The notes under the pieces were generated by a model. That model did not search any database. It saw only the letters and a program-made list of their open reading frames with translations, and was not told the origin of the DNA. Both the position numbers and the translations under genes were made by a program. A stretch of DNA of 64,000 bases from Mytilus trossulus (Eukaryota): contig NC_086377.1 of NCBI RefSeq assembly GCF_036588685.1, positions 5,084,001-5,148,000 on the forward strand, written 5' to 3'. Shown in pieces: positions 9,682 through 64,000 of this stretch; within the stretch, counting starts at the first letter, position 1; each line of letters begins with the position of its first letter.

Positions 9682-9725
9682 GCACCAGATGCGCATTTCG
9701 ACAATACATGTCTCTTTAGTGATAC
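9682..9725 (-). ncRNA. Degenerate minimal hammerhead ribozyme (core mutated); paralogous copy at 33750-33793
   Basis: Minus strand GUAUCA-CUAAAGA-GACA(UGUAU)UGUC-GAAA-UGCGCA-UC-UGGUGC; the CUGANGA box is mutated. Confidence 0.55.
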
Positions 9726-12419
9726 TCGTGGTCGAAATATTTGAATTCCAAAGCTTAAATAAAAGATAACCACGGGGACCGAGAACACAGTTATTTCGTA
9801 TTGCATTTCTTTTTGATAATAAATTCAAATAAAAAAAACCCATCAAAATTGCACTAACTCAAAAAGAACTTCACAGTGTAGTGTACTACAATTTGGAAAA
9901 ATAAAATCAAAGTTATAGAAAGGTCTACCAGCTCTAACTCAAAATACTGACAATTCTGTGTTAACGGGTCTAAAATTCCTTTTGAAATATTCAGACATAC
10001 TAATTTGACCAAATCACTACTTGAAAGAAAGATTCAGCACCCAATTAAAAAAAATGTAATTTCATAATATTAATATTTCATGCATTAAGAAATAAAGTTG
10101 GAAAGTTCCCAGACTTCACGTTCATCATATAATAGCTTCATATACGAAATTTAGTTGACCTGTTTCATACAGTATTTTAAAAAGACCAAAAATTAAAAAA
10201 GAAACCTTTTTTTTTTACCTCTGAACCATGAGAATGATGTCAAGGTTATATGACACCTTCAAGTTAGACAAGTACAGCTTATAATCATTCAATACGCAAA
10301 ATATGTTAGACCTATTGGCATTGAATATTTTATCTGGTATATGGTCAATAAAAACAGTCATGACGAACAGGAGGACCTTGCGAGGTACGCAAAGACTAAA
10401 TATAATTATTATATTACTCATAGTAAGAAAGAAATTGATTAAAATTAAAAAGGAAATACTCTAATCAAATGGAAAGAACATCAAAAGCTCCAAAAATATC
10501 AAACGAATTGATAACATCTTGTCATATTCCAAGAACAAAAATATTAATTTGAAAAATCCCGGTGTCCCTTCTATTGATAAGTAAGTAGTACTGATATGAC
10601 CGTATATGTCAAACTCTAGGTAACGGTATAACACCCAGGTGGAGGAAGCTGTGTCTATTGTTTCTTTAATTTCATGTTCTCAATCTGTGGAATATATCAA
10701 TGGAACCTAATTAGAATTCAAGATTGGATTGTTAATGAAAAGAACGTCATCAAAATATCTGAAAGTGAAATTAAATGATCTGGGTTCTTCGAACTTATTC
10801 GACATGTGGTGTTGTGTTGTCATTTTGATGTTATATGTCACATGGCCACAACAGAGGGAGGTTTGGCATGCCACAAAACCAGGTTCAACCCACCATTTTT
10901 TCCTTTAAAAATATCCTGTACCAAGTCGGGAATATGGCTATTGTTATCTTATTGTTCGTATCTGTGTGTGTTACACTTTAACATTGCGTCGTTTGTTTTC
11001 TCTTATTTTTGAGTGTGAATTCACATTGCGATAAGACGTGTCACGGTACTTGTCTATCCCAAATTCATGTATTTAGTTTTGATGTTATATTTGTTATTCT
11101 CGTGGGATTTTGTCTGATGCTTGGTCCGTTTCTGTGTGTGTTACATTTTAGTGTTGTGTCTTTGTTCTCCTCTTATATTCAATGCGTTTCCCTCGATTTT
11201 AGTTTATTACCCCGATTTATGAGTTTTGAACAGCAGTATACTACTGTTGCCTTTATTTAATGTTTTTGACAAGACTTAGTGTCTGGGGAAACTCCAATTT
11301 TATATGAGGTCAATGACAATAATCAAATGACGGACGGAAAGTAAGTAACATAAGGCATCTATATTTTAAGTATAACGCATCCAGGTCTCCACTTTCTAAA
11401 TTATAAAGTTTTTAATAAGTTTACTAACGCTATCTTCTGCGCCGGATCACTATCCCTGTGTCCAGCGTTCTGCGACAAACATTGCAGGCTCGATAAAAAT
11501 GCATACGAATAAATTGTTTTTCAGCTTAATTATAACGTCATGATTAATTTGTTTTATTCCAATCATACTCCTGCGCGTTCTGCCTTTTAAGAATGAGCTA
11601 CCAAAGGTCAATTGGCGACAAATGCGCTATTGAAGGATTAAGTAATGATATAATTATTCAAAGGAAAATGCTTGAATGCAAAACTGAAATTCGTGGAAAA
11701 ATGGAAAGATTAACTTACAATGATACATGAAATAATCATTTGAATAAGTTCAAACATGTCTGTGTACTTTCACCTATCTATTAGAAATGCATTGGGTCTT
11801 AAATTAATAATGAATTGATCACGAGTTTGCACTTTATGCCGTTATGTTACCTTTTGCTATCCAGCTCCTTTTCATTGAATTATTTTGCAAATATTGTTAC
11901 AAGTAAAAGGCTTAGCTAGCTATAAAACCAGGTTAATTCCACCATTTACTACATCACAAAACAAGGGTGATTTCAGGTGCTCCGGAAGGGGAAGCAAATC
12001 ATGTTCCACATATGGTATCCGTCGTGTTGTTCAAGTTGTTACAAAGGCGGTAAAATAGTCTAATTCGGCAGGTCACATTCGTGAAAAGGGAAGGGGATTG
12101 TAATTACACATAACGACATAACGAGCAAATCTGGTATCATCTGTATAACGAATATTCTATAACAGTCAATCTGGCTGACTATATATATTGTACCATCAAT
12201 TTTAAGTTAGACAGGTTAGATTTCGTTCAAGATATAGTCACCAATCTTTGAATTACTTAGTAAAAGGACATCATCTTAATAACGGAACGTTGAACTACAT
12301 GATCATCAAATTGAGAAAGGAAATGGGAATGTGTCAAAGGAACATCAACCTGACCATAGAGCAGACAACATTTATGCATTTATTGTATTTGACAAAAAGC
12401 TCTGTAAAACACAATCAAT

Positions 12420-34625: not shown

Positions 34626-35861
34626 TTAATGAATTTTGAATATAGATAAACACGAATATCCTACATGAATATAAATATCAGTAACAGCATGTATATCTAT
34701 GGTATCACGCAAGCTTAAAGAAACAACGGCTGAACCTGTACCGGTATGATGATTTTCGATTTGGTCACCAGAAAAGCGTGGCACTATACGCACATAAACT
34801 AAAGTGTTTTTGTTTTTCCTGATTTGATATTCTGCATCAGATAAATGGGTCATTATGCTAGCAATGATCAGGTATAGTCCAGGTTTCTCACATGTAAACT
34901 TTCCATTGGTTTGTAAGGTGGATAACGTATTGATTCCGTATGATGATCTGATGTTAGGAAATCTGATCACTGAATTGTTGTTATAGCGGTCACCAGTAGC
35001 GCACGCAGTAACGGCAACTGTAAAAGAGAAAATAAGATACATATAGCTAACAAATAGTATTTAAATATAGTAATGTGATAATGACCTGTAATCTTGTTTT
35101 TTTTTTAGGAATAATTCAACAGTATGTAATAATGCTGTATTTTGATTGGACGAGAGACCAGTTTCCCCCAGTAATTTCTATAAATTGAGAATTTCTTTTC
35201 TCTGCCGGTGTATCTGTCATTAAGAAATTTGAAGTTTGAATATTAAGACTACTGCCAGCAGCCGGTTGGATATTAAATCGTGTGAATATCGAAAAACGAA
35301 AATCGAACTTGCCGCTTACTTCACATGGCTGCATGCTTCTATTTGAAAATAAATCACAGACTTATCAAAAAACATTATGAACATATCAATTTCGTGAGTC
35401 TAACGCTCATTCAAAAAGAAGTCTTAATTAACTTATCATAATAATTATCTACCTTGCTCACTTTCCTTTGTCTGTTTATCTTCCAAGACCATTATGTCAT
35501 TTTTAATTCTATTTAACATTGTCATGGTTATCTTAGACGAATAATTTCTGTAGTAAGAACAACAATTTTCGAACTGTGTAGATTTTGATTGAACTGTATG
35601 TAGCTCTGAACGCAATATTTCAAAGTCCTTCAGAATGATAGGTATTTTAGATGTAATATTGGTAAGTTTTTTCACTTCCATTTCAAGTTGTCCAATATTT
35701 TGTATAATTTGTTTTTGTTCTTTTCTTTCCTCTATGATGATATCAAAGAGCGCATTGTAACGGCTATTTGTTATTTCACTATTTAAGGAGCCAGGCGTTG
35801 TCAGTTCAAAAAGAAACCCGAATATTGTAGGAAGAAGAAACAGCCAAATTACTCCCACCAT
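34626..35861 (-). CDS. Secreted C1q-domain-containing protein (C1qDC), 2 exons, 266 aa
   Basis: Exon 1 35453-35861 (signal peptide and coiled-coil, phase-1 GTAGAT donor). Exon 2 34626-35017 (gC1q: VIRFPNI..GKFTCEKPGLY..HTGTGSAVVSL..SCLSIFKI). Confidence 0.9.
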
Positions 35862-36297
35862 AATTTATATTTTTTTCACATGAAGTCGAACGGTGTCGGA
35901 GAAGCTTTTGGTACTTAAAACATCTACGATGTTTGAATGTTATCTATAAGTACCCACCTTTTGGCAAAACACCCAAATTGCATGGAGCTTATATAATGTG
36001 TTGATAAAATAAACTCTTCAACATGTTCAAATATAGATATTTGACTTCATCAAAAGACACGTGCATTTAATCATCTTTAATAGTGAACAAGGCAGGTATA
36101 CCATAAATAAAAACAACCAACATTTTTCATAGCAAACGACGTGAATTAGAACTGAAAACACTACAATGTTAAAAATTGTAAAAATTAAAACATGTTAAAT
36201 GGCAGACAATGACTTGCAATTGATATGACTTATTAACGACTAAAATGAAAACGGGGAATAGGTCAAGGAGACACAACCCGTCCAAAGAGATGATAAC

Positions 36298-36499
36298 TGA
36301 AGTACCTCAGGGTCATTGGTGGTGCTCCACATTGGAGGCAGATCCGGAAGACGAGAGAGCCTCGTTTCGGATCTGCCGGCAGTCGAAAACCTAGAAGCAG
36401 AAGCCAAAGCACGCTGATTCTAGCCGACCCAGAGAATAATTAGATAACCGTCTAACTGTACTTGCAAGATAGCCAGGGTAAGTTTTGAGAAAGCTTACA
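36298..36499 (+). repeat. 5' LTR (202 bp)
   Basis: Identical to 45801-46002 except base 3 (TGA vs TGT). Confidence 0.97.
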
Positions 36500-36500
36500 T

Positions 36501-36514
36501 TGGCGCTGCGAGCA
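36501..36514 (+). promoter_or_regulatory. Primer-binding site, probably tRNA-Ser
   Basis: TGGCGCTGCGAGCA, 1 nt after the 5' LTR; complementary to a tRNA 3' end ...TGCTCGCAGCG-CCA resembling tRNA-Ser(CGA/TGA). Confidence 0.75.
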
Positions 36515-37185
36515 TTCGTTTTCGAACAAATTCACTCGGGGAGTTGAATTCTACATCGAAATTGCAAATTTCAAGGGGCCAAAACAGCACCTCCATTTTG
36601 TTTTTAGGGATCCCTGACAGGTCACCTATTTTCAGTTTTCGCTAACCATAGCTTTGCTAGGTTAGTTTTATCGGGAGGGAAAAGTTAAAGCACCGGGAAG
36701 GGAACCTTGTGTGGCTAAGTTTCAGTCACCGTTTGTTATTTTTGAGGGATTTTTTCATACTTGGCCGTTTGCGGAGCCCTTGTAGGAACAAGTGTGAACC
36801 CCTTACTCGTTCTGCAAAACCCTTGTAGGGAATTTTGTAAACCCCAATCCAGTTCCGCCGCGTATTGCACTCAATTGACCTACGCAGCTCAACTTCCATT
36901 TGCAACCATAATTTGCAAATCTTCCGGTTGTAAACAGAAAGAAGAAATTGTAAGTGTCAAATTAAAGCAAAAAAACACATTGCACATACACCTGCCATTG
37001 TATATACACTCCTCTGGGGTCAACTTATAAGCTTGATCCCCAGTTAAAAAAAGTTGTTATATTAAAACCATACAAAACAGTCAAATATTATAAATACCCC
37101 TTTCCAGTGGATACCCCTGCCAAATCCCTAAACTAAACCTAAATTGTTTATTGTTTAATTATTGTGTTCCCATTCAAGTGTGACC

Positions 37186-38916
37186 ATGGCTAGAGTCCAC
37201 ATAAACTCTGCCACTTTTGAGGAATTGTTATCAATTCCAGGGGTAGGGGCTAAAATTGCCGCAAAAATTTGGGAATTGAGGGAGGATAAAGGAATTCTGG
37301 AGTTGGAGGACCTACGGGAGGTTCCTTATATGAGAATAACGGAGGCAGCTCTAGAATCTATGGATTTTAGTACCTCCCTGCCACCCAACAGGGGGTCTAA
37401 TAAATTTTGCAAAGAGGAGATAGGGCATCAAGAGAAGGTGCAAAGGATTGATAGCCTCATACAGGCCAGGGGTAGGGGGCAAACAGAGTATCCCAGTCAA
37501 TCAGTAGAAACACCCAGAGCCAGGGAGTCCGTGTCCACATCTCCATCCCAACACATCAATTTCCAAGATGGTGGGGAACTTAACCGGGGTTTCAGGGAAG
37601 ACATGGGGACCCACCAGGACCGATGGGACAGGCCCATGGGTGCTTATGGGGGTCCAAGAGATTACAAGTATGAAGGGGAAACACCTCGGTCTAGATATAA
37701 CAATGCCGGAGATACAGGAAGGGGAAGAGGGGGTTTTCAAAACCAGTTTATTGATAATGAGGGTCCAAGGCTCAGAGATGCCCAGCCGGAGAGCGAGGCT
37801 CCGGCATCAAGGCACGCCAGTAGCATGGGGTACCCCACAGGGTCAGGGGAACCCAGACGGGGATATGGGGACCAGAGAAGCTCTCGTCGGGATGCATATG
37901 ACCACCAGGGGAACATGGGAGGGTCAGATAACCAAAGACAGAGGGGGTCTATGGGGGTTAGACCTCCCATCCTACAAAAGAGCTTAAAGTATGATGGGAA
38001 AACTAATTGGCAGGCTTTCTATGCCAAATTTTCCCGATTATGCCAGGTTAGTGGGTGGTCTTCAGGGGAGTGCAAGGATCAATTGTGCTGGTCCCTTGAT
38101 GGGAAACCCAGTGAGTTTTATGCCTTGCTCGTGGAAAGAAGGCATGACTTGTCTTATGAAGACTTGGTGAGTAAGTTGGCCAAACGATTTGGGTTCAATG
38201 AGTTGCCAGAAACAGCCCAAGTCCAATTTAACATTGCCAGGCAGGGTGGGGATGAAACCTTAGAGGACTGGGCCGACAGGGTCCAATCACTCGCCACAAA
38301 AGCCTTCCGTCACCTTCCTGAAGATCACATGTACCAGCAAGCCATCATGAGATTGTGTCAGGGGGCCTCAGATAAGGAGAGGGGAATGTTGGCCTCCAAT
38401 GCCAAACCAAAGAGTATTGAGGAGGCAGTGGATAAAATTCGTATGCACCAACATAACCACCAGGCCATATATGACCGTAGTGCCAGAAAAGAAGTAAAAA
38501 GTGTAAGTCCTGAGATCCGAAGCCGGGGTGGGGATCACTATACTGTCTGTTCCACATCAGGACCAGTCCCCAATAATGCTCCTTCCAAAATTATCCCCAA
38601 AGAACATTCTCCTAAAGATGTCCAGGATTTGAAGGACCAATTTCATGCCTTCAAGGGGGAGGTAAGTGGGACTCTGGGCAATATCATGTCTGAAATACAA
38701 AAGCTATCTTTTGCTGTCCGCAATAATGCTAGGCCCCCATCCAGAAGCCCCTCTCCTCGTGCCGGTGGTTGTTTCCATTGCGGGGAGGCAGGCCACTTTA
38801 AAAGGGAATGCCCAAAGTTTCAAAGGTCTAATTCTCCTCGACCTGGGGGAAAAAAGGTAACCTTCCAGGACAACAAGGGTCCGTTAAACTCCAACGGGTC
38901 GACTCAAGAGGTCTGA
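37186..38916 (+). CDS. gag: Gag with N-terminal helix-hairpin-helix, capsid-like domain and CCHC zinc knuckle
   Basis: ACCATGG Kozak start; VHINSATFEELLSIPGVGAKIAAKIWELRE (ComEA-type HhH); YDGKTNWQAF..RQGGDETLEDW; CFHCGEAGHFKREC at 38770-38811. Confidence 0.92.
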   Translation: MARVHINSATFEELLSIPGVGAKIAAKIWELREDKGILELEDLREVPYMRITEAALESMDFSTSLPPNRGSNKFCKEEIGHQEKVQRIDSLIQARGRGQTEYPSQSVETPRARESVSTSPSQHINFQDGGELNRGFREDMGTHQDRWDRPMGAYGGPRDYKYEGETPRSRYNNAGDTGRGRGGFQNQFIDNEGPRLRDAQPESEAPASRHASSMGYPTGSGEPRRGYGDQRSSRRDAYDHQGNMGGSDNQRQRGSMGVRPPILQKSLKYDGKTNWQAFYAKFSRLCQVSGWSSGECKDQLCWSLDGKPSEFYALLVERRHDLSYEDLVSKLAKRFGFNELPETAQVQFNIARQGGDETLEDWADRVQSLATKAFRHLPEDHMYQQAIMRLCQGASDKERGMLASNAKPKSIEEAVDKIRMHQHNHQAIYDRSARKEVKSVSPEIRSRGGDHYTVCSTSGPVPNNAPSKIIPKEHSPKDVQDLKDQFHAFKGEVSGTLGNIMSEIQKLSFAVRNNARPPSRSPSPRAGGCFHCGEAGHFKRECPKFQRSNSPRPGGKKVTFQDNKGPLNSNGSTQEV

Positions 38917-38951
38917 GTCTGGCCCCTAAACCACGGAGTATAAAGGACCTC
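38883..38951 (+). promoter_or_regulatory. Putative -1 ribosomal frameshift signal (slippery heptamer plus H-type pseudoknot)
   Basis: G TTA AAC, 6-nt spacer, stem GGGTCGACTCA/TGAGTCTGGCCC, loop GAGGTC pairing with GACCTC (38946-38951). Pol is in the -1 frame and open from the heptamer. Confidence 0.75.
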
Positions 38952-41900
38952 ATGATAAGCCATAACCCACCTTACTTAACTAAGGAGGGTACTATCAGTC
39001 AAATAGAAATGATACCGGAGGAAATAATTTCCCCACTTGTGCAGGAATGCCTAGAGGAACCGTCCCATTCCGAGGAACTAGGGGTCATTAAATCACTACC
39101 TCCTGTCCCACCAGACCCCACGTCCACCAAGGAGAAAGACATAGCTCAAACAGCAAAACTAATAGAGGGGCCTAAGAGGGAACCCATCAATCTCATAGTC
39201 CCGGACATGTCTGAATCGGGGTCACAAGACGAAGAGTCGGGGGAGGAAGGGGAACAAACACTGTGTGATAGCTCAAACAGTGATGGGGAGGGGGACTTAG
39301 TGACAGAGGGGGAAAAAGAAATGATAACCATAAGTCAGTTAACGGGGGGTACTATGTATCGGGTGCCTGTGGTAGTCCAGGGTCACAGGGTCGACGCTGT
39401 TGTAGACACAGCAGCTCAGGTTACCCTAATATCCGAGGAAACGTACAAAAGTTTAAAGGAGCTCGAGCCACCTCCTATTCTTAAGGAAGTGGTGATGAAC
39501 ACTGCAGGAAAGGGCCTACAAATGAATGGGTTTGTTGCTGGGCCTTTTTATATTAAGTTGGGGAACCAAGATTTCACATGGGACATATATGTAGCACCAA
39601 TTGGAGATCAGATGCTTTTGGGAATAGACTTCTTAAGGAAGCAGGGCATATCGCTCGACTTGCATAGGAATCAATTGTCCATTCACGGGGAGGTCATCCA
39701 AATGTCATGGGGTCAGGCCAGTTCATTGCCCCAAACAACTGAGGTACGGGCAGGAAAGAATCACACAGTCCCAGCCAATTCAGTTCAAAGAGTCATGGGA
39801 GTGTTAGCCAAACCCATGGGTCGAGAATACATCATTGAGGCAAAGGCTGAGGGCTGTTTGCTCATACCCAGAACCTTACATGATGTAGGTCAAGATCCGG
39901 TGTTGTGTCTGATAAACCTCACCGATAGTCCCCTGGTGATCTCAAAAGGGGATCTACTAGCCCAAGCTCAGGAAGTCGACATGGGGGAACCCCCGGGCCC
40001 TAAAGTGTGCAAGATGGGGGTTGCTGGAGAGGTTAAGGAAAAATTGTTGCCCCAACACTTACAAGAGATGTTCACCAGGTCCTGTGAGGATTTGTCTAAG
40101 GGGGAGGAGGAGACCTTGTGTTCCCTGTTACAGGAATTTCAGGATGTCTTTGCTAGCAGTGACTTAGATCTGGGCCATTTCACGGCCTTGGAACATGGCA
40201 TTGACACCGGGAATCACCCCCCCCCCCCCATTAAACAGCGAATGCGGCGCACCCCCTTAGGTTTTGCCCAAGAAGAGGAGGCTCATTTGGAAAAAAATTT
40301 ACAATCTGGGGTAATTCAGCCATCCGTATCGGAGTGGGCTTCTGCCCCAGTCCTCATACGGAAAAGGGATGGTAGCGTTAGGTGGTGCGTGGACTATAGG
40401 AGGGTCAATGGGGCCTGTTCCCGCCAAATCTTTGCACTCCCCTTAGAAGAAGAGTGCCTAGACACCCTAGCAGGAAATGTGTGGTACTCCAAGCTGGATG
40501 CCAATTCGGCGTATTGGCAAGTCAAAATAAAAGAGGATGACCGGCCAAAAACGGCTTTTATCACCAAATATGGGCTGTTTGAGTTTGCACGCATGGCTTT
40601 CGGGCTATGCAATGCCCCAGCCACATACGCCCGGGTCATAAGCCTTGTACTCCGGGGGTTAATATGGCGGGTAGTGTTGGCTTTTTTGGATGACATATTA
40701 GTCTTGGGAAGGGATTTTGGGGACCACTTGGCAAACCTGAGGGTAGTATTTGAAAGGTTTAGGACGTACGGGCTCAAACTAAAACCCAGGAAGTGTGATT
40801 TATTTAGGAAAAAGGAAGAATTTTTAGGGAGGGTGGTAGGTCCCGAAGGGATGGAAATTGGGCCGGGATATGTAAAAGATGTAAAAAACTGGCCAAAACC
40901 CCGGAACTCAAAGGAAGTAGAACGGTTTTTGGGATTCGCAAACTATCACAGGGCCTTTATAAAAGACTATACTAATATAGCCTTACCCCTTCAAGCCTTA
41001 ACCGGAAAACGCCCCTATTTCTGGGGAAACGAGCAACAACAGTCTTTCGATAGACTCAGGGAAGCCATGGTGTCAGCCCCTGTTTTGTCATTACCCAATG
41101 CCACTGATCCCTTTATCTTAGACACGGATGCTTCCGACAAGGCTATTGGGGCAGAATTATTGCAGGTCCAGGGGGGACAGGAACGGGCCACGTCCTATGC
41201 TAGCTTTACCCTTACCCCAGAACAGCAGAAATATTGTACTACCCGAAAGGAGCTGTTAGCCATTGTCAGGTTCACCAGGCTATTCAGACATTACTTGCTT
41301 GGGCGGAGGTTTACGGTTCGAACAGATCATAGTAGTTGGTTAACGAATTTCAAGGAACCCCAGGGACAATTAGCCCGGTGGCTGGAAGAAATCAGTCAGT
41401 TTGATATGGAAATCAAACACCGGCCAGGGGCTAAACATCCTAATGCAGACGCTTTGTCTCGATTGCCTCAATATGGACCGTGTCCCGAGTTTCAAGTAGA
41501 CAAGGTTCTAGCCAATTTGCCCTGTGGGGGATGTACCTACTGTGCCCGAGCTCAACAAAATTGGGGACAGTTCACGGAAAATGTTGATGATACCATACCC
41601 TTGGCAAAGAGACCCTATGGTAGTACACAACCCAAAGACACACGAGAACCAGTGGTGCAAATATCCCGGGTGTCTGTGTCAAAGAGGGGGGACGAATTAG
41701 CCATATGGTCAAAGGGGGAGGGTGACATCTGGGTGCAGGAAGTAGGAGGGGACCTAGGGGTCAACTTGGGCTACAGTCAGGAAGAGTTAAAAGAAAACCA
41801 AAGTAAGGACCCAGACTTAAAATGGGTGGTTCAATGGAGGAAAACAAAAGGGGAACCCTCTGAGGAGGAAATCTTCCTCAGCGGTCCCGCCTCCAAGTAC

Positions 41901-43292
41901 TACTGGTTAAATCGGGAATTATTTGTCCTTAGTGGGGATGGTGTACTGTACAGGAAGGGGGTGAAAGGAGAGGCAGATAGGGTGGTCATTCCCCAAGTAT
42001 CAAGGAAGGAACTCATGGAGTTGTGTCACGATATTCCTGCAGCGGGCCACCAAGGGGGGGACCGAACCTACCAAAGGATCAAGCCAAGGTATTATTGGAG
42101 AGGGATGAAGAAAGAGATTGAACAGTATGTAGCAAGTTGTGCTTTGTGTAGCCAAAACAAAAAGGCTACTCGCCCAAACCGTCACCCTATGGTGAAACAT
42201 CACGCCGGGGCACCAATGGAAAGGGTTCATCTAGATTTTGTGGGGCCCCTCCCAAAAACAGAAAGGGGAAATGAACATATCCTCATGATGATCGATCAGT
42301 TTACCAAATGGGTGGAATGTGTCCCTCTCCCCGCCTAGGGCGCAGAACTAACAGCCCGCACGGCAGTGAATGAGTTCTTCTCCCGTTTCGGGAGTCCCTT
42401 TCAGGTATTCACTGATCAGGGGAGGAACTTTGAATCCCATCTGTTTAAAGCCATGTGTGACCTGCTTCAAATACACAAAAGTAGAACCACCCCATACCGC
42501 CCCTCCTCCAATGGTCAAGTAGAGCGTTGCAATCGAACGCTGATGGCTTCAGTGCGGTGCTTTGTGGGAAAAAATCAAAAGTCCTGGGATCTATTCCTTC
42601 CGCAATTAGCTGGTGCGTTCCGTGCTTCAGTCAGTAGAAGCACCGGGTTTACTCCTAATCATCTCATGTTGGGCAGAGAAGTCAATCAACCTGCTGAGTT
42701 GATGTTCAGGGGGCCACAGGGGGAGGAAATTCAGGATAGAGAAAAATATGTTTCAGACTTAGAGGAGGCCATCCAAGGGGCACACGAGCTGGCCAGGGCC
42801 AACCTAAAAACGGCACAAGAACGCCTCAAAAGGGATTACGATCTCAAGGTGGTAGTCAAAAGGTTTAAGGTGGGGGATCTAGTGTACCAATTGGACACGG
42901 CCACCATCAAGGGAAAATGTCGGAAACTGACACCATCTTGGAAGGGCCCTGGGGTGGTGGTGGAAAGTCTCACTCCATATCTTTACAGGGTCAAAATGAA
43001 AACAGCAATGGTGGTGGCCCATCATGACCGGATTAAGTTGTGTAAAGATAGGGAGGTCCCAAATTGGTGTAAAAAACTACAAGCCCAAGTTTTAAGTAGA
43101 AATTGGAAGGAAATAGAGGAGTTGGAACCCAAGGGAAAAAGGGGAAAAAACATTTATTGCTCATACCGGGGACCAGAGGATGGGGGTCTCATGATTAGAT
43201 GTGACGAGTGCAGGGAATGGTTCCATGGACGATGCGTGGACATCACTCCTGAGGAGGCGGACAGAATGGACGCTTATCAGTGTCCTGGATGT
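38883..43292 (+). CDS. pol: Pol polyprotein (protease, RT, RNase H, integrase, C-terminal PHD); interrupted by an in-frame TAG at 42336-42338
   Basis: DTAA protease (39405), FLDD RT (40683), DTDAS..TDH RNase H, HHCC and D-D-E integrase, WKGP motif, PHD at 43155-43292. The frame resumes directly after the stop. Confidence 0.93.
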
Positions 43293-43355
43293 TCGGTCTC
43301 CACAGAGGTGCACGTGTCCAGGATCTCCCTGCACTCTAAGGTAAATCTATTTCAG

Positions 43356-45394
43356 ATGAATAACAACACCAACAGTATTGACAAAACAGGGGATGGAAGC
43401 CAGCCACCTTCTCCAGAGCAGGCCTCCGTCACAGAGGTGACGGAGGAACTGGTAGTGTGTGTGTCGGAGGAGGAGCTGAGGCAGCTGGACCCTGAGGTCC
43501 AGGGGAGCCCAGGGGCTGCCTTAGAGGTATGTGGGGGGTCCGAAGGGGGGTCTGAAGGGGTTGAGGGGAAGGGGGAGGTGAAGAAGACCAAGAAGAAGAG
43601 GAAGTCGAGGAGCAACAAGAAGAGCAGAGCTGCCAAGAAGAAGGCCACGGCAGCAACCTCACCTCTCCTGACAACCTCACCTCAGGGGGTGGCTCAGGGT
43701 CAGGAGGTGTGTCGGGGCCAGTCTGGCTCCCCAGCTTCCGGTGAGGTGGCAACACCTCACTATGGAGTTCAGGGTGAAGCAGTTGGTACTGGACTGTCTT
43801 GTCCAGTTTCTGGCTGTGAAACCCGGGGACCAGGCCTGGAAGGGCACATTCTCGCGGAGCACGTGGCCGAGGTGTTCCGTGACCTGGTAGTCTCCGACCC
43901 AGGGTTAGCCCGGGTGCGTCTCACATCGCTGAGCACACTCTTCAGGGCCCTGGGGGGGGCTGCTGTTGGGGACCCCATCCATTGGGTGATAAGCCAGCTG
44001 GAGACTGTGGGGCTGACTCCAGAGGACTTGACCGCTGAGTGGGGAGCCATGGCAGCAGTGTGCCAATTGGCGCGATGGGAGGTTCCGCGAACCTTTACAC
44101 TGTCACCAATAAACTCACCTGCAGTCCTTATGCATTGGAGGGCGCAGGTGGAGTTGATGGCTTTACTACAGGAACATCAGCGTCAGGCCTTTCTGGGGAA
44201 GGTTAACCTTAGCTCCAGTGAGCCGTCCCAGGCGAGCTCTTCTAGTGAGCAGGGGAGTCCACCAGCCAAGGCAGGAGTTTTTAGCCGGCTGGGGGCTCCG
44301 GTTTGCACACAGGGGACTCCCAGGCCCATGGGGCAGGTTGGGGCGTTCAGTTCCACGGGGCCCTCTCCCAGGTCCATTCCCTCCCTCATGTCCCTCCCCA
44401 CCCGGCCTGTACCCTCCCTCATGTCTCTTCCACGTCCTGGTCCCAGCAGGTCACTTCCAAGTCTAGGGTCAAGAGGCTCATCCTCATCTGTGGGGGCACA
44501 GGGATCAAAGTACCCGGGGAATCCCTCAGGGAGTAGGGGAGTGGAGTCTCAATTGTGCAGGGATCTTCCGGAGGCATTTGACAGCCATATGCATCTGGAT
44601 AGGTCCCTGACCAAGATGGGGCTGCCTCCTCGGACATCTCTGGGTGATTTCCTAAGGGTGCGGTTGGACCCTGCCCCTGTGGATCCAGTCAAGCTGGCTG
44701 GAGGGGTTGCAGTTTTCTGCAACCCGAAGACTTGGCCCAGTGTGCCTTTGAGGCTGGAGCCAGGGTGGGTTGGAGCAGTGGGAATCCACCCAAAGAGTGC
44801 TGGGCAGTTTGAGGACGCCGTTTAGCACCGGTTCCACCAACTGGTGTCGCACCCAAGTGTGTCCGCCCTTGGAGAGGTGGGAGTGGATTACACTGTGGAG
44901 GAAAAACTACACGCCCGGCAGATATCGACCTTGCGATGGGCACTCCAGTCCTGCCGCTTTGACCAGCCTGTGGTCTTGCACATTCGGGGTGGCAAACTGG
45001 ATAGGGTTCACGCCCGAGCCCATCGCGAGGTCTTAGAGGTTCTGAAGAGTGTGGTAGTCAATCCGCTGCAGTTAATTCATCTCCACTGTTTCCAGGGGGG
45101 ATTGCTCAGGTGCGGGAGTGGCAAGACTCATACCGCAACGCTTATTTTGGGTTTGGTATGGGTGTCAGGTCCTTTAACTCTGAGCAGAAGGAGGCCTTGA
45201 GGTCGGTGCCCCCATACAGGATTCTCTTGGAGAGTGATGCCCCTTACTTCCCCCCACCAAATGCACGGCATGGCCACCCTCATTAACTTTATGAGGTGGC
45301 AAAGGTGGTGGGGACAGTGAGGGCAGAATCACCGAGGGAAATTGTACGGGTGGCCCACCTCAATGGTAGCCGTCTGTACGGAGTTAACCCGTAG
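43356..45394 (+). pseudogene. tatD: Env-position ORF in frame with pol: basic NLS, C2H2-like finger, TatD-family nuclease domain (44571-45394); disrupted in this copy
   Basis: DSHMHL, AVGIHP, ALGEVGVDY, PVVLHIRG, HLHCF, YFGFG, RILLESDAPY, GHP..LYEVAKVV..NGSRLY. Lesions: TAG 44823, 1-bp loss in the G-run 45095-45100, TAA 45284. Confidence 0.88.
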
Positions 45395-45786
45395 GTGGGC
45401 AACTCCCAACATGTACATAGCAACAGAAAGGCCCGTTGGCCAGTTACAATTGTTAGAGAAATTAGTTATAGCCAGTTGGCTTCCAATAAATGAATTTACA
45501 GCCCGTTGGCTCCTAAATTAACCATAGTTATAGCCAGTTGGCTCTTAGTAATGAATTTGAGGGCCCGTTGGCCAAAAGGGGAGGATGTATATATGCGTAA
45601 TCCTGGGGTGTGTGTCATGGGGATCCCGAGGGTGAGGGGAATGGGGGGTGACCAACTGTAGTTCAGTCTCCATAGGGCATGGGTGGGGGCGGGTTTACTG
45701 TGTTTCTGATCCTGTTTTTGGTATATTCCCTACTGATTTCCCTAGCATGATCTTTTGTTTTTACCCGGGGGTTACTCCTTTTGTAC

Positions 45787-45800
45787 AAAGTTGGGGGGAG
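45787..45800 (+). promoter_or_regulatory. Polypurine tract
   Basis: aaagttggggggag immediately before the 3' LTR. Confidence 0.85.
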
Positions 45801-46002
45801 TGTAGTACCTCAGGGTCATTGGTGGTGCTCCACATTGGAGGCAGATCCGGAAGACGAGAGAGCCTCGTTTCGGATCTGCCGGCAGTCGAAAACCTAGAAG
45901 CAGAAGCCAAAGCACGCTGATTCTAGCCGACCCAGAGAATAATTAGATAACCGTCTAACTGTACTTGCAAGATAGCCAGGGTAAGTTTTGAGAAAGCTTA
46001 CA
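45801..46002 (+). repeat. 3' LTR (202 bp)
   Basis: TGTAGTACC...AAGCTTACA followed by the TAAC TSD. Confidence 0.97.
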
Positions 46003-46659
46003 TAACAGTCGTATAACATCAATGGGTGTTCAACGCAGCGAGAAAATCCTATATACTCAGCGGTTGGTATCAGCTTAATAAAACTGTGTACTTTTTCAAT
46101 GAAAACAGACGTCATACTAAACTTAAAACCATATAAATGAACTTAAATTACAATTCATACAAGAATATCAAAGACAAAAGGCTCCTGACCTGGACAGGTG
46201 CACAACGCTGTGGGGTTAAACAATTCTGTAAGATACCCTTTTTGATAGCAACAAGTGGTGCCTGTGTTAGGACTGGAACGGCGTGTGGTCACAACGACCT
46301 GATACCAGAAATGAGGTTGTAGAAATCTAAATACTATTATTCCGAAACAATATAGTAATGAAATTAAAACAATATAAAGAAATATGCACAGGCACTTGTT
46401 TATATCCATAGAAAGGTCGACTATCCATATAGATAGAAGTACACGTATGTGGCTAACGGAATTGATTTAAGGTCACGACCGTCTCCGCTTCGGACTCATT
46501 TTGTACCCTTTAAGTTAAAGCAAAAATCTGTACATTATATGAATCGAAAAATTGAATATTCACCTTCAACACAGTTCATATGGTTATGTTCATTTTAATT
46601 TGCAATGAAAGATGTAGATTTTGGTGTAAAAAAAATATTTTATAAACAATCTGTATATT

Positions 46660-46977
46660 GAGTTGACTTTGTCCCTTTGGTATCTTTCGTCCCTCTTTAA
46701 TTACCACTGGGTCAAAGTTTCTGCTGGTGGACATTTTGTCTCCGAGGGCATCATCCGCCCAGTAGCAAAACTACAATTGCATGAATTTAGATTTATGAGT
46801 TTGACTGTCCCTTTGGTATCTTTCGTCCTTCTTTTATCACCACTGGGTCGATGTCTCTGCTGGTGGACATTTTTCTCCCCGCTCGAGGGCATCATCCTCC
46901 CAGTAGCAAAACTACAGTTGCATGAATTTAGATTTATGAATTTGACTGTCCCTTTGGTATCTTTCGTCCCTCTTTTT
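46660..46977 (+). repeat. Tandem ~140-bp repeats of a Penelope-like element 3' terminus
   Basis: Three copies of ttgactgtccctttggtatctttcgtcc, matching the reverse complement of the element end at 62695-62745. Confidence 0.65.
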
Positions 46978-62694: not shown

Positions 62695-64000
62695 AAAAGA
62701 GGGACGAAAGACACCAAAGGGACAGTCAAACTCGTAAATCTAAAACAAACTGACAACGCCATGGCTAAAAATGAAAAAGACAAACAGAAAAACAATAGTA
62801 CACATGACACAACATAGAAAACTAAAGAATAAACAACACGAACCCCACCAAAAACTAGGGTGATCTCAGGTGCTCCGGAAGGGTAAGCAGATCCTGCTCC
62901 ACATGCGGCACCCGTCGTGTTGCTTATGTGATTACAAATCCGGTAAATAGTCTAATTCGGTAGGTCAAATTCATGAAAGGGAAGGGGATTGTAGTTACGA
63001 CGTAAGGAACATATCCGATATCATTTGTGAAACGGTTATTCCATAACGGTCAACCAACTCGTGATGGCGTCCGTAAAATTTACGAAGGGATGATTTCAAC
63101 TTCACCATTTGGAACTCTTGGTTTAATAGCTTCCTTGTGAGCAGTAACCCTCTATCAAGAAAATCATGATAGGAAATGCAAGCACGGGAATATCGTATCA
63201 ATTGGGAGATATATACCCTGTATGCAGGTGCTGCTGGAATGTTGCTACTTAGAAATGGAAAGTTCACAATTGGAAAGCTGAAATCATCTCTTTTGTCGTA
63301 AAGTTTTGTCTTCAACCGACCCTCATTGTCAATTTCTAGATGTAAGTCAAGATATGAAGCCGACTTAACTGTATCTGTAGTATCCTTTATCTCCAATTCG
63401 ATGGGATAGATGCGATCCACATAGTCACCAAATTTTGAATTGTTTAGTGAAAGAACGTCATCTATATAGCGGAAAGTAGAGTTAACGGATATTGCTAACT
63501 TCTTATCTTTCTTCCTAAGAAGTTCCTGCATGAAGTCAGCCTCATAATAATAAAGAAACAAGTAGAGGGGCACAGTTTGTTCCCATTGGGATGCCGACAG
63601 TCTGTTGAAAAACACGTCCTCCGAACGTAACAAATATGTTGTCAATCAAGAAATCAAGCATCTTGATAATATCGGTTTCAGAGAATTTTTTGTTTGAATC
63701 AGAATGGTTCTTTACAAAGTATGATTTATCCCTCCCTAAGACAAGATACTTGTATCTACGTTGGCCATTCTTTTTTATGAAGCAAAGTAATACCAACTCT
63801 TTTAATTTGTCTTTTAGTTTGGAATGTGGAATACTTGTGTAAAGAGTAGAAAAGTCAAATGTTTTAATACTGTTACAAGATGAAAGAGAGTTAGATTGTA
63901 TGTACTCTAAAAGATCTTTGGAATTTTTAAGTATCCACATCTGATTCACGCCACCTCTAGAATAGGCAGTTTCACAATAACTTTGAAGCCCGTCTTTGAT
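62695..64000 (-). mobile_element. Penelope-like retroelement, Naiad-type (RT at the ORF C-terminus); 3' part only
   Basis: MWILKNS, FDFSTLYTSIPH, an insertion in the fingers region, GIPMGTNCAPL, RYIDD, LYDKRDDF..SQLIRY. ORF stops at 62995 with no C-terminal GIY-YIG; small deletion frameshift near 63560; 3' UTR 62695-62994. A degenerate 3' fragment lies at ~11965-12170. Confidence 0.85.

Follow-up and report, generated by a model that had tools for sequence, protein, structure and literature searches.

An apparently undescribed Ty3/Gypsy variant in Mytilus trossulus with a predicted ComEA/EEPD1-type helix-hairpin-helix domain at the N terminus of Gag

The window, a 64,000-nucleotide stretch of Mytilus trossulus DNA to which all positions below refer, contains a Ty3/Gypsy LTR element at 36298–46002. 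It has direct TG...CA LTRs, a target-site duplication, a primer-binding site, a polypurine tract and the Ty3/Gypsy gene order, that is, gag followed by pol with protease, reverse transcriptase (RT), RNase H and integrase. A third open reading frame (ORF3) lies downstream of pol. For comparison, we used six loci (L001 to L006) that were picked by capsid motifs only, inside GTDB symbiont assemblies, and thus provide an unbiased check. The features of the element are as follows:

36294..36297, + strand: left copy of the target-site duplication, 4 bp (TAAC), with the identical four bases at 46003–46006
36298..36499, + strand: 5′ LTR, 202 bp, TG...CA, 201 of 202 positions identical to the 3′ LTR
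36474..36483, + strand: putative 5′ splice donor near the 3′ end of the LTR, cut after 36477, by consensus match
36500..36511, + strand: primer-binding site, adjoining the LTR; 12 identical bases follow the LTR end in L005
37186..38916, + strand: gag ORF, 576 aa, intact
37186..37368, + strand: ComEA/EEPD1-type helix-hairpin-helix (HhH) domain, Gag 1–61, by HHH_3, AlphaFold2 model, ComEA fold match and column conservation
37381..37968, + strand: linker between HhH and capsid, 196 aa, low complexity, rich in G/R/S/P/Q, by composition and low identity
37969..38505, + strand: capsid domain, Gag about 262–440, by Retrotrans_gag and PNMA matches
38767..38817, + strand: CCHC zinc knuckle (nucleocapsid), PF00098, E 5.9e-6
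38832..43292, + strand: pol, with protease, RT, RNase H, integrase, SH3-like fold and PHD finger
38883–38889 and 38896–38925, + strand: putative −1 frameshift signal, heptamer and hairpin
43164–43292, + strand: PHD finger at the integrase C terminus
43334..43355, + strand: putative branch point and 3′ splice acceptor, directly 5′ of the ORF3 ATG
43356..45394, + strand: ORF3, with low-complexity N terminus, conserved Cys/His domain and TatD nuclease domain
45787..45800, + strand: polypurine tract, a purine-rich run adjoining the 3′ LTR
45801..46002, + strand: 3′ LTR
46003..46006, + strand: right copy of the target-site duplication, matching the left copy

The insertion appears to be recent because the two 202-bp LTRs differ at one base, and the window Gag is 98% identical to one Mytilus edulis protein. 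As read in the assembly, the window copy is defective: an in-frame stop (42336–42338) breaks pol inside the integrase core, and ORF3 has three breaks, namely stops at 44823–44825 and 45284–45286 and a frameshift near 45095. In L001, L004 and L005, pol is unbroken and includes the PHD finger. The pol frame is −1 relative to gag. The end of Gag carries a slippery heptamer, with AAAC as its last bases, in the window and in all five loci that include this end. The z score of the frameshift hairpin is −2.4 in the window and −3.3 to −3.6 in three of the five loci; in two it is not significant. Conservation of Leu-Asn near the Gag end is explained by the overlap of heptamer and hairpin (38883–38925) with the gag stop. 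By −1 frameshifting, Gag-Pol would also carry the HhH domain. Rfam gave no matches within 36200–46100.

Some further observations concern the element's surroundings and intervals. From the PHD finger to the ORF3 ATG (43293–43355), the window sequence is free of stops; in L004 and L005, pol ends before ORF3. Two imperfect 48-bp direct repeats (45463–45572) occupy the interval from ORF3 to the polypurine tract, and short direct repeats (68–93 bp, 91–96% alike, spacing about 140) lie just beyond the 3′ LTR (46670–46976). In L005, a primer-binding site follows the LTR at the 3′ end (about 9700–9970), which may mean that the contig is permuted or carries copies in tandem. A C1q-domain coding piece (Pfam E 7.7e-6) with an upstream 139-aa ORF that has a hydrophobic start is found on the minus strand at 34626–35864; the element is about 430 bases away, near enough for a possible effect of the LTR on a host gene with a C1q domain. 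A 178-aa ORF on the minus strand (62995–63531) had no Pfam match.

The segment 37186–37332 on the plus strand is the start of the 576-aa ORF, with only nine codons, and no Met, between the upstream stop and the ATG. The ORF encodes Gag, as seen from its Pfam matches to Retrotrans_gag (residues 302–388), PNMA (272–392) and zf-CCHC (528–544); furthermore, the family profile matches PNMA2 capsid chains. The original prediction had translated this segment and read it as a ComEA/EEPD1-type HhH at the Gag N terminus, and on both points it was borne out. Pfam HHH_3 matches Gag residues 3–49 (E 5.6e-8, 33.2 bits, curated cut-off 27), and the score is 38.7 bits when residues 1–65 are scanned alone. NCBIfam ComEA models match as well (E 1.8e-8 and 1.3e-7), with scores under their whole-protein cut-offs (34.3 versus 53.1 and 31.6 versus 152.35 bits). 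The predicted start at 37186 stands, but the predicted end was slightly short: conservation extends to a D60-F61 motif, and the domain therefore comprises 37186–37368. None of 2260 shuffled Gag N-terminal regions was matched by the domain profile.

An AlphaFold2 model of the domain (53 sequences) reached a mean pLDDT of 86.2. Its best fold match among 48,161 chains was ComEA of Geobacillus stearothermophilus (8dss; Z 10.1, rmsd 1.5, 61 aligned residues), followed by Tex (Z 8.9), Thermus ComEA (Z 8.2) and, at Z scores of 5 to 6, TEFM, GspK, Spt6 and PsbU. Foldseek gave no match at E ≤ 0.001; its top chain was also 8dss (E 0.011). The Atlas fold comparison led to generic HHH_3 clusters (0.84–0.91). 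In sum, the model confirms that Gag residues 1–61 are predicted to form a ComEA/EEPD1-type HHH_3 fold. A sequence search of the PDB listed EEPD1 first (9yi2, E 3e-8) and ComEA next; per domain, the two tie (37.7 versus 39.3 bits), so no single donor is favored. A donor search with residues 1–64 found only two self-like proteins among 55 candidates.

To follow the domain through the family, we retrieved 179 related proteins with the whole Gag as the query, taking the best 150 of 3671 representatives in one retrieval; this query favors HhH-bearing matches. A capsid match of at least 100 bits was present in 176 of the 179, and in 113 the capsid was preceded by 140 residues or more. A domain profile built from 56 of these 113 long Gags found the HhH in 94 of the 113, including 38 of the 57 non-seeds, and in one of 63 relatives with a shorter N terminus. 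Pfam HHH_3 alone detected it in 75 of the 113 (43/57 plus 32/56, E ≤ 0.01). There is one HhH domain per protein across all 179 scanned. Among the loci picked by capsid motifs, HHH_3 exceeded its cut-off in all five Gags scanned (32.3–51.9 bits), that is, in five of six loci; no match was obtained by tblastn in L006, a fragment of 1.6 kb. Thus, the domain is neither without a profile match nor absent from related Gags, the two outcomes that would have spoken against it. In a capsid tree made by a quick method, in which 109 of 113 rows were used, four being omitted because their capsid was short, and 48 of the 106 inner branches stayed open, the HhH occurs on all major branches and its absences are scattered (17 changes versus 17.8 with shuffled labels). 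Of the 19 long Gags that lack it, three were shown to look like N-terminally clipped predictions, and the scatter fits clipped gene predictions or sporadic loss. Median identity to relatives is 34% for the HhH, 22% for the linker (median length, 205 aa) and 45% for the capsid; the domain, kept better than the linker and less well than the capsid, is thus under constraint. Judging from these comparisons of sequence, the HhH is an ancient, conserved N-terminal Gag module of one marine-invertebrate Ty3/Gypsy lineage.

The loci L001 to L006 lie in GTDB genomes of SUP05, Sedimenticola and a gammaproteobacterial MAG and are animal retrotransposon DNA; Gag copies in symbiont genomes are labelled as a bacterial HhH protein. 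Most likely, host DNA has contaminated these assemblies and given rise to "bacterial" annotations of HhH and TatD.

The second unusual component is ORF3, and its TatD gene is arguably more surprising than the HhH in Gag. Pieces of the broken window ORF3 match TatD_DNase (E 1.5e-12 and 1.1e-7). An unbroken ORF3 with TatD has 926 aa in L004 (6894–9674) and 801 aa in L005 (6965–9370). These two, the only fetched loci long enough, combine HhH-Gag, Pol-PHD and a separate TatD ORF3; L001 has the HhH and the PHD finger and ends about 140 bases past pol. HhH and TatD are thus seen together in just three elements, the window copy, L004 and L005. With the L005 ORF3 as the query and 8000 candidates scored, at least 69 relatives were found; those with a named source come from bivalves, gastropods, a hemichordate and sea urchins. 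The Pfam cut-off is passed, the TatD metal ligands are kept in 58–60 of 60 aligned relatives, and the model of the unbroken L005 gene has a TIM-barrel fold that matches TatD/YcfH (Z 30.2 and rmsd 2.4 against Staphylococcus aureus TatD). ORF3 is therefore a predicted TatD nuclease; it differs from known TatD/YcfH nucleases in being the third gene of an LTR element and in standing behind a Cys/His domain. This middle domain had no Pfam match, scored <0.9 in the Atlas (TM <0.4) and lay outside the coverage of the fold search.

ORF3 is probably expressed by splicing, from the donor at the LTR end to the acceptor before its ATG. A pyrimidine-rich stretch ending in CAG at the ATG, or one base before it, is present in the window, L004 and L005, and a donor-like site occupies the equivalent place at the LTR end in L005 as in the window; a spliced message is likely because the acceptor precedes the ATG in three elements and the donor is at the LTR end in two. 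Such a message would resemble the env mRNAs of retroviruses, which are spliced. We also considered a Gag-TatD fusion made by splicing, which would yield an HhH-nuclease like EEPD1. Within gag, the window has a perfect in-phase donor (38661); no equivalent was found in L002, L004 and L005, and the sole donor-like site of L001 is elsewhere. The residues at 38661 are not conserved, HHH_3 matched none of the 69 ORF3 relatives, and the fusion was rejected.

Residues tied to DNA binding are kept in part. Hairpin 1 has the GhG motif in the window (G19-V20-G21) and GxG in 62 of 89 relatives, and Lys or Arg follows within three residues in 62 of 89. Position 23, in the register of Vibrio cholerae K62, is basic (K/R) in 49 of 90 and position 50 in 52 of 92. 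By fold alignment, the essential lysine of ComEA maps to I24 of the window Gag, and this position is K/R in 3 of 89 family members. Hairpin 2 has GxG in none of 90, so this is not a canonical two-hairpin (HhH)2 domain. Net charge has a median of −1 and exceeds zero in 27 of 81; the best-kept columns are N7 (81/83), A25 (81/90), R32 (90/93) and F61 (88/91). GspK and PsbU, which share the fold, are to our knowledge not known as DNA binders. A dRP-lyase lysine as in polymerase beta, which has a similar motif, was rejected, since position 27 is Lys in only 13 of 90.

For ComEA, passages of two papers report the need for a lysine (K164/K166/K63; K166 in Geobacillus, K63 in Vibrio) (PMC9747964, PMC3879209), and the latter passage adds that loss of either HhH motif abolishes binding and that R71 of V. 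cholerae ComEA, in whose register Gag R32 lies, is thought to be structural (PMC3879209). HhH-DNA contacts are described, in a section of the former, as typically running from backbone NH to phosphate (PMC9747964). According to part of a study on EEPD1, its isolated (HhH)2 shows no stable DNA binding, and several (HhH)2 units are needed (PMC12988330). Binding of DNA by the Gag HhH is thus plausible and less secure than the original prediction implied, given the ComEA lysine in 3 of 89 and the absence of the hairpin-2 GxG. A single Gag HhH is probably a weak binder because the lysine and the hairpin-2 GxG are lost and EEPD1 needs several copies; its function would depend on avidity.

We propose that the HhH tips of Gag tether the particle multivalently to host chromatin, a reading to which we give somewhat less than an even chance (about 0.45). 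If Gag assembles with its N terminus outward, hundreds of HhH tips per particle would be displayed on long linkers, which may be disordered to judge by their composition; the domain lies about 200 residues before the capsid domain. Each tip would grip the DNA backbone weakly and without sequence preference, using hairpin 1 and the basic residues close to it, and avidity would hold the particle, or a Gag-containing preintegration complex, on host chromatin. The PHD finger of the integrase, a candidate chromatin reader, could then refine the site. In the Ty3 particle, as a passage on its structure describes, the N-terminal segment of CA runs outward, and nucleocapsid and genome are inside (PMC6525542). 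By analogy, the Gag HhH would lie outside the shell and away from the cDNA. A precedent is p12 of murine leukemia virus (MLV), a part of Gag upstream of the capsid that tethers the capsid-containing complex to chromatin, according to PMC6021111. However, the outward orientation is borrowed from Ty3, and the protease may cut the HhH off.

The original prediction had suggested that Gag binds cDNA or chromatin directly from the matrix position. Of these targets, chromatin fits the topology better. "Matrix position" holds for the place in the protein but not for homology: Gly2 is found in only 2 of 83, and metaviral Gag N termini are not matrix homologues in the account given in part of PMC10516033. 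A myristoylated matrix was rejected on the same Gly2 count, the HhH fold and the median net charge of −1. That an HhH is unusual for a Gypsy Gag holds true; the only fold that this paper describes for the region is the PNMA-type RNA-binding domain (PMC10516033).

Other explanations of the domain have to be weighed against chromatin tethering. The topology that would place the HhH outside the shell is the reason why we favor tethering over binding of the element's own encapsidated cDNA, in which the HhH would coat or protect linear cDNA after cleavage or uncoating. Descent from dsDNA binders, the HhH that −1 frameshifting would put on Gag-Pol and a linker long enough to reach inward are consistent with such a role, but the outward course of the Ty3 N-terminal extension (PMC6525542, in part) and the expectation that exposed host DNA would out-compete cDNA for a binder without sequence specificity make it very unlikely in our view. 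Binding of RNA during assembly, for the selection of genomic RNA, primer tRNA or export, would make the domain a counterpart of the PNMA-type N-terminal RNA-binding domain. The capsid is indeed PNMA-like, the linker is R/G-rich, the next-best folds are Tex, TEFM and Spt6, and PNMA-type metaviruses carry an RNA-binding domain in the equivalent slot (in a passage of PMC10516033). However, the closest matches in sequence and fold are the dsDNA binders ComEA and EEPD1, and with its zinc knuckle Gag has a module for RNA already, which we count in favor of chromatin tethering; we consider an RNA-binding role distinctly unlikely.

The domain could also have lost DNA binding and have become a protein-protein module that brings about Gag oligomerization or recruits a protein of the host or the element, like the HhH of XPF-ERCC1. 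The best-kept residues (N7, A25, R32 and F61) are core or structural, the critical lysine and hairpin 2 are lost, and GspK, PsbU and Spt6 are among the fold neighbors. On the other hand, the hairpin-1 glycines and adjacent basic residues are kept in about 70%, and self-association of the EEPD1 (HhH)2 region is negligible in the part of PMC12988330 that bears on it, so we regard this explanation as unlikely. Finally, a recent capture or mis-joined gene without a role is hardly credible: although the window copy is broken in pol and ORF3 and 19 of 113 long Gags are without the domain, the gag ORF is uninterrupted in genomic DNA, and the HhH is kept across Gags whose capsids are only about 45% identical. 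The profile survey, the capsid-motif loci and the capsid tree have already largely refuted a passenger or artefact.

Compared with ComEA (PF12836 HHH_3; 8dss, 8dfk, 2duy), the Gag domain shares the whole-domain fold, the IN-x-A/C start, hairpin 1 and the conserved Arg but is without the critical lysine and the second GIG hairpin, and it is fused to a capsid, whereas ComEA is fused to a membrane anchor or signal peptide. EEPD1 (9yi2), the best whole-chain sequence match, likewise lacks the +3 lysine and aligns through the terminal Phe; it has two (HhH)2 domains and an EEP domain, whereas Gag has one domain and no EEP. MLV p12 and the foamy-virus chromatin-binding sequence have a similar proposed job, the tethering of a capsid complex to chromatin by a part of Gag (PMC6021111), but these peptides are short, bind nucleosomal histones and have no homology to the Gag HhH, which is a folded module of the DNA-backbone type. 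PNMA-type metaviral Gag shares the order of nucleic-acid-binding fold, capsid and zinc knuckle and has a related capsid (part of PMC10516033), but its N-terminal domain has an RRM-like alpha/beta fold and is not an HhH. The term "helix-hairpin-helix" used for CERV of Cer1 was rejected as a precedent; as far as one passage shows, it describes a leucine-zipper domain of a different family. The lineage is probably one of the clades into which Thomas-Bulle et al. 2018 divide mollusc Gypsy elements (MolGy1-16, C-clade, others), which are defined by RT/RNase H only; PHD fingers and extra ORFs are not mentioned in the available sections of that paper (PMC6238403).

The literature searched, which did not extend to Repbase, Dfam, GyDB and subscription journals, contained no description of an HhH in a retrotransposon Gag, nor of TatD in LTR/Gypsy elements; the part of one TatD paper that was checked concerns the host TATDN2. 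Automatic annotation already tags Gags of relatives with HHH_3, so the trait is visible in databases. The element is a real, conserved and apparently undescribed Ty3/Gypsy variant. Taken further, and more doubtfully, this might be an undescribed Gypsy lineage, found in molluscs, echinoderms and hemichordates, that integrates with three borrowed modules: capsid-displayed ComEA-type HhH tips for chromatin, an integrase PHD finger and a TatD nuclease, expressed by splicing, with a role in cDNA trimming, in the removal of RNA:DNA hybrids or in repair of the integration intermediate. If true, neither an HhH DNA tether displayed on a capsid nor a TatD accessory gene of an LTR element would have a precedent.

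The region of Ty3/Gypsy Gag upstream of the capsid has a poorly known role; it is not a matrix, according to PMC10516033. Here, the domain is well folded and 61 residues long, it is of a type whose mechanism is known, and its residues can be mapped, so that function becomes directly testable; it would show how an element without env reaches chromatin. With TatD, a new class of accessory gene is added, and its occurrence suggests that, in mollusc and sea urchin genomes, many gene models named "TatD" belong to retrotransposons.
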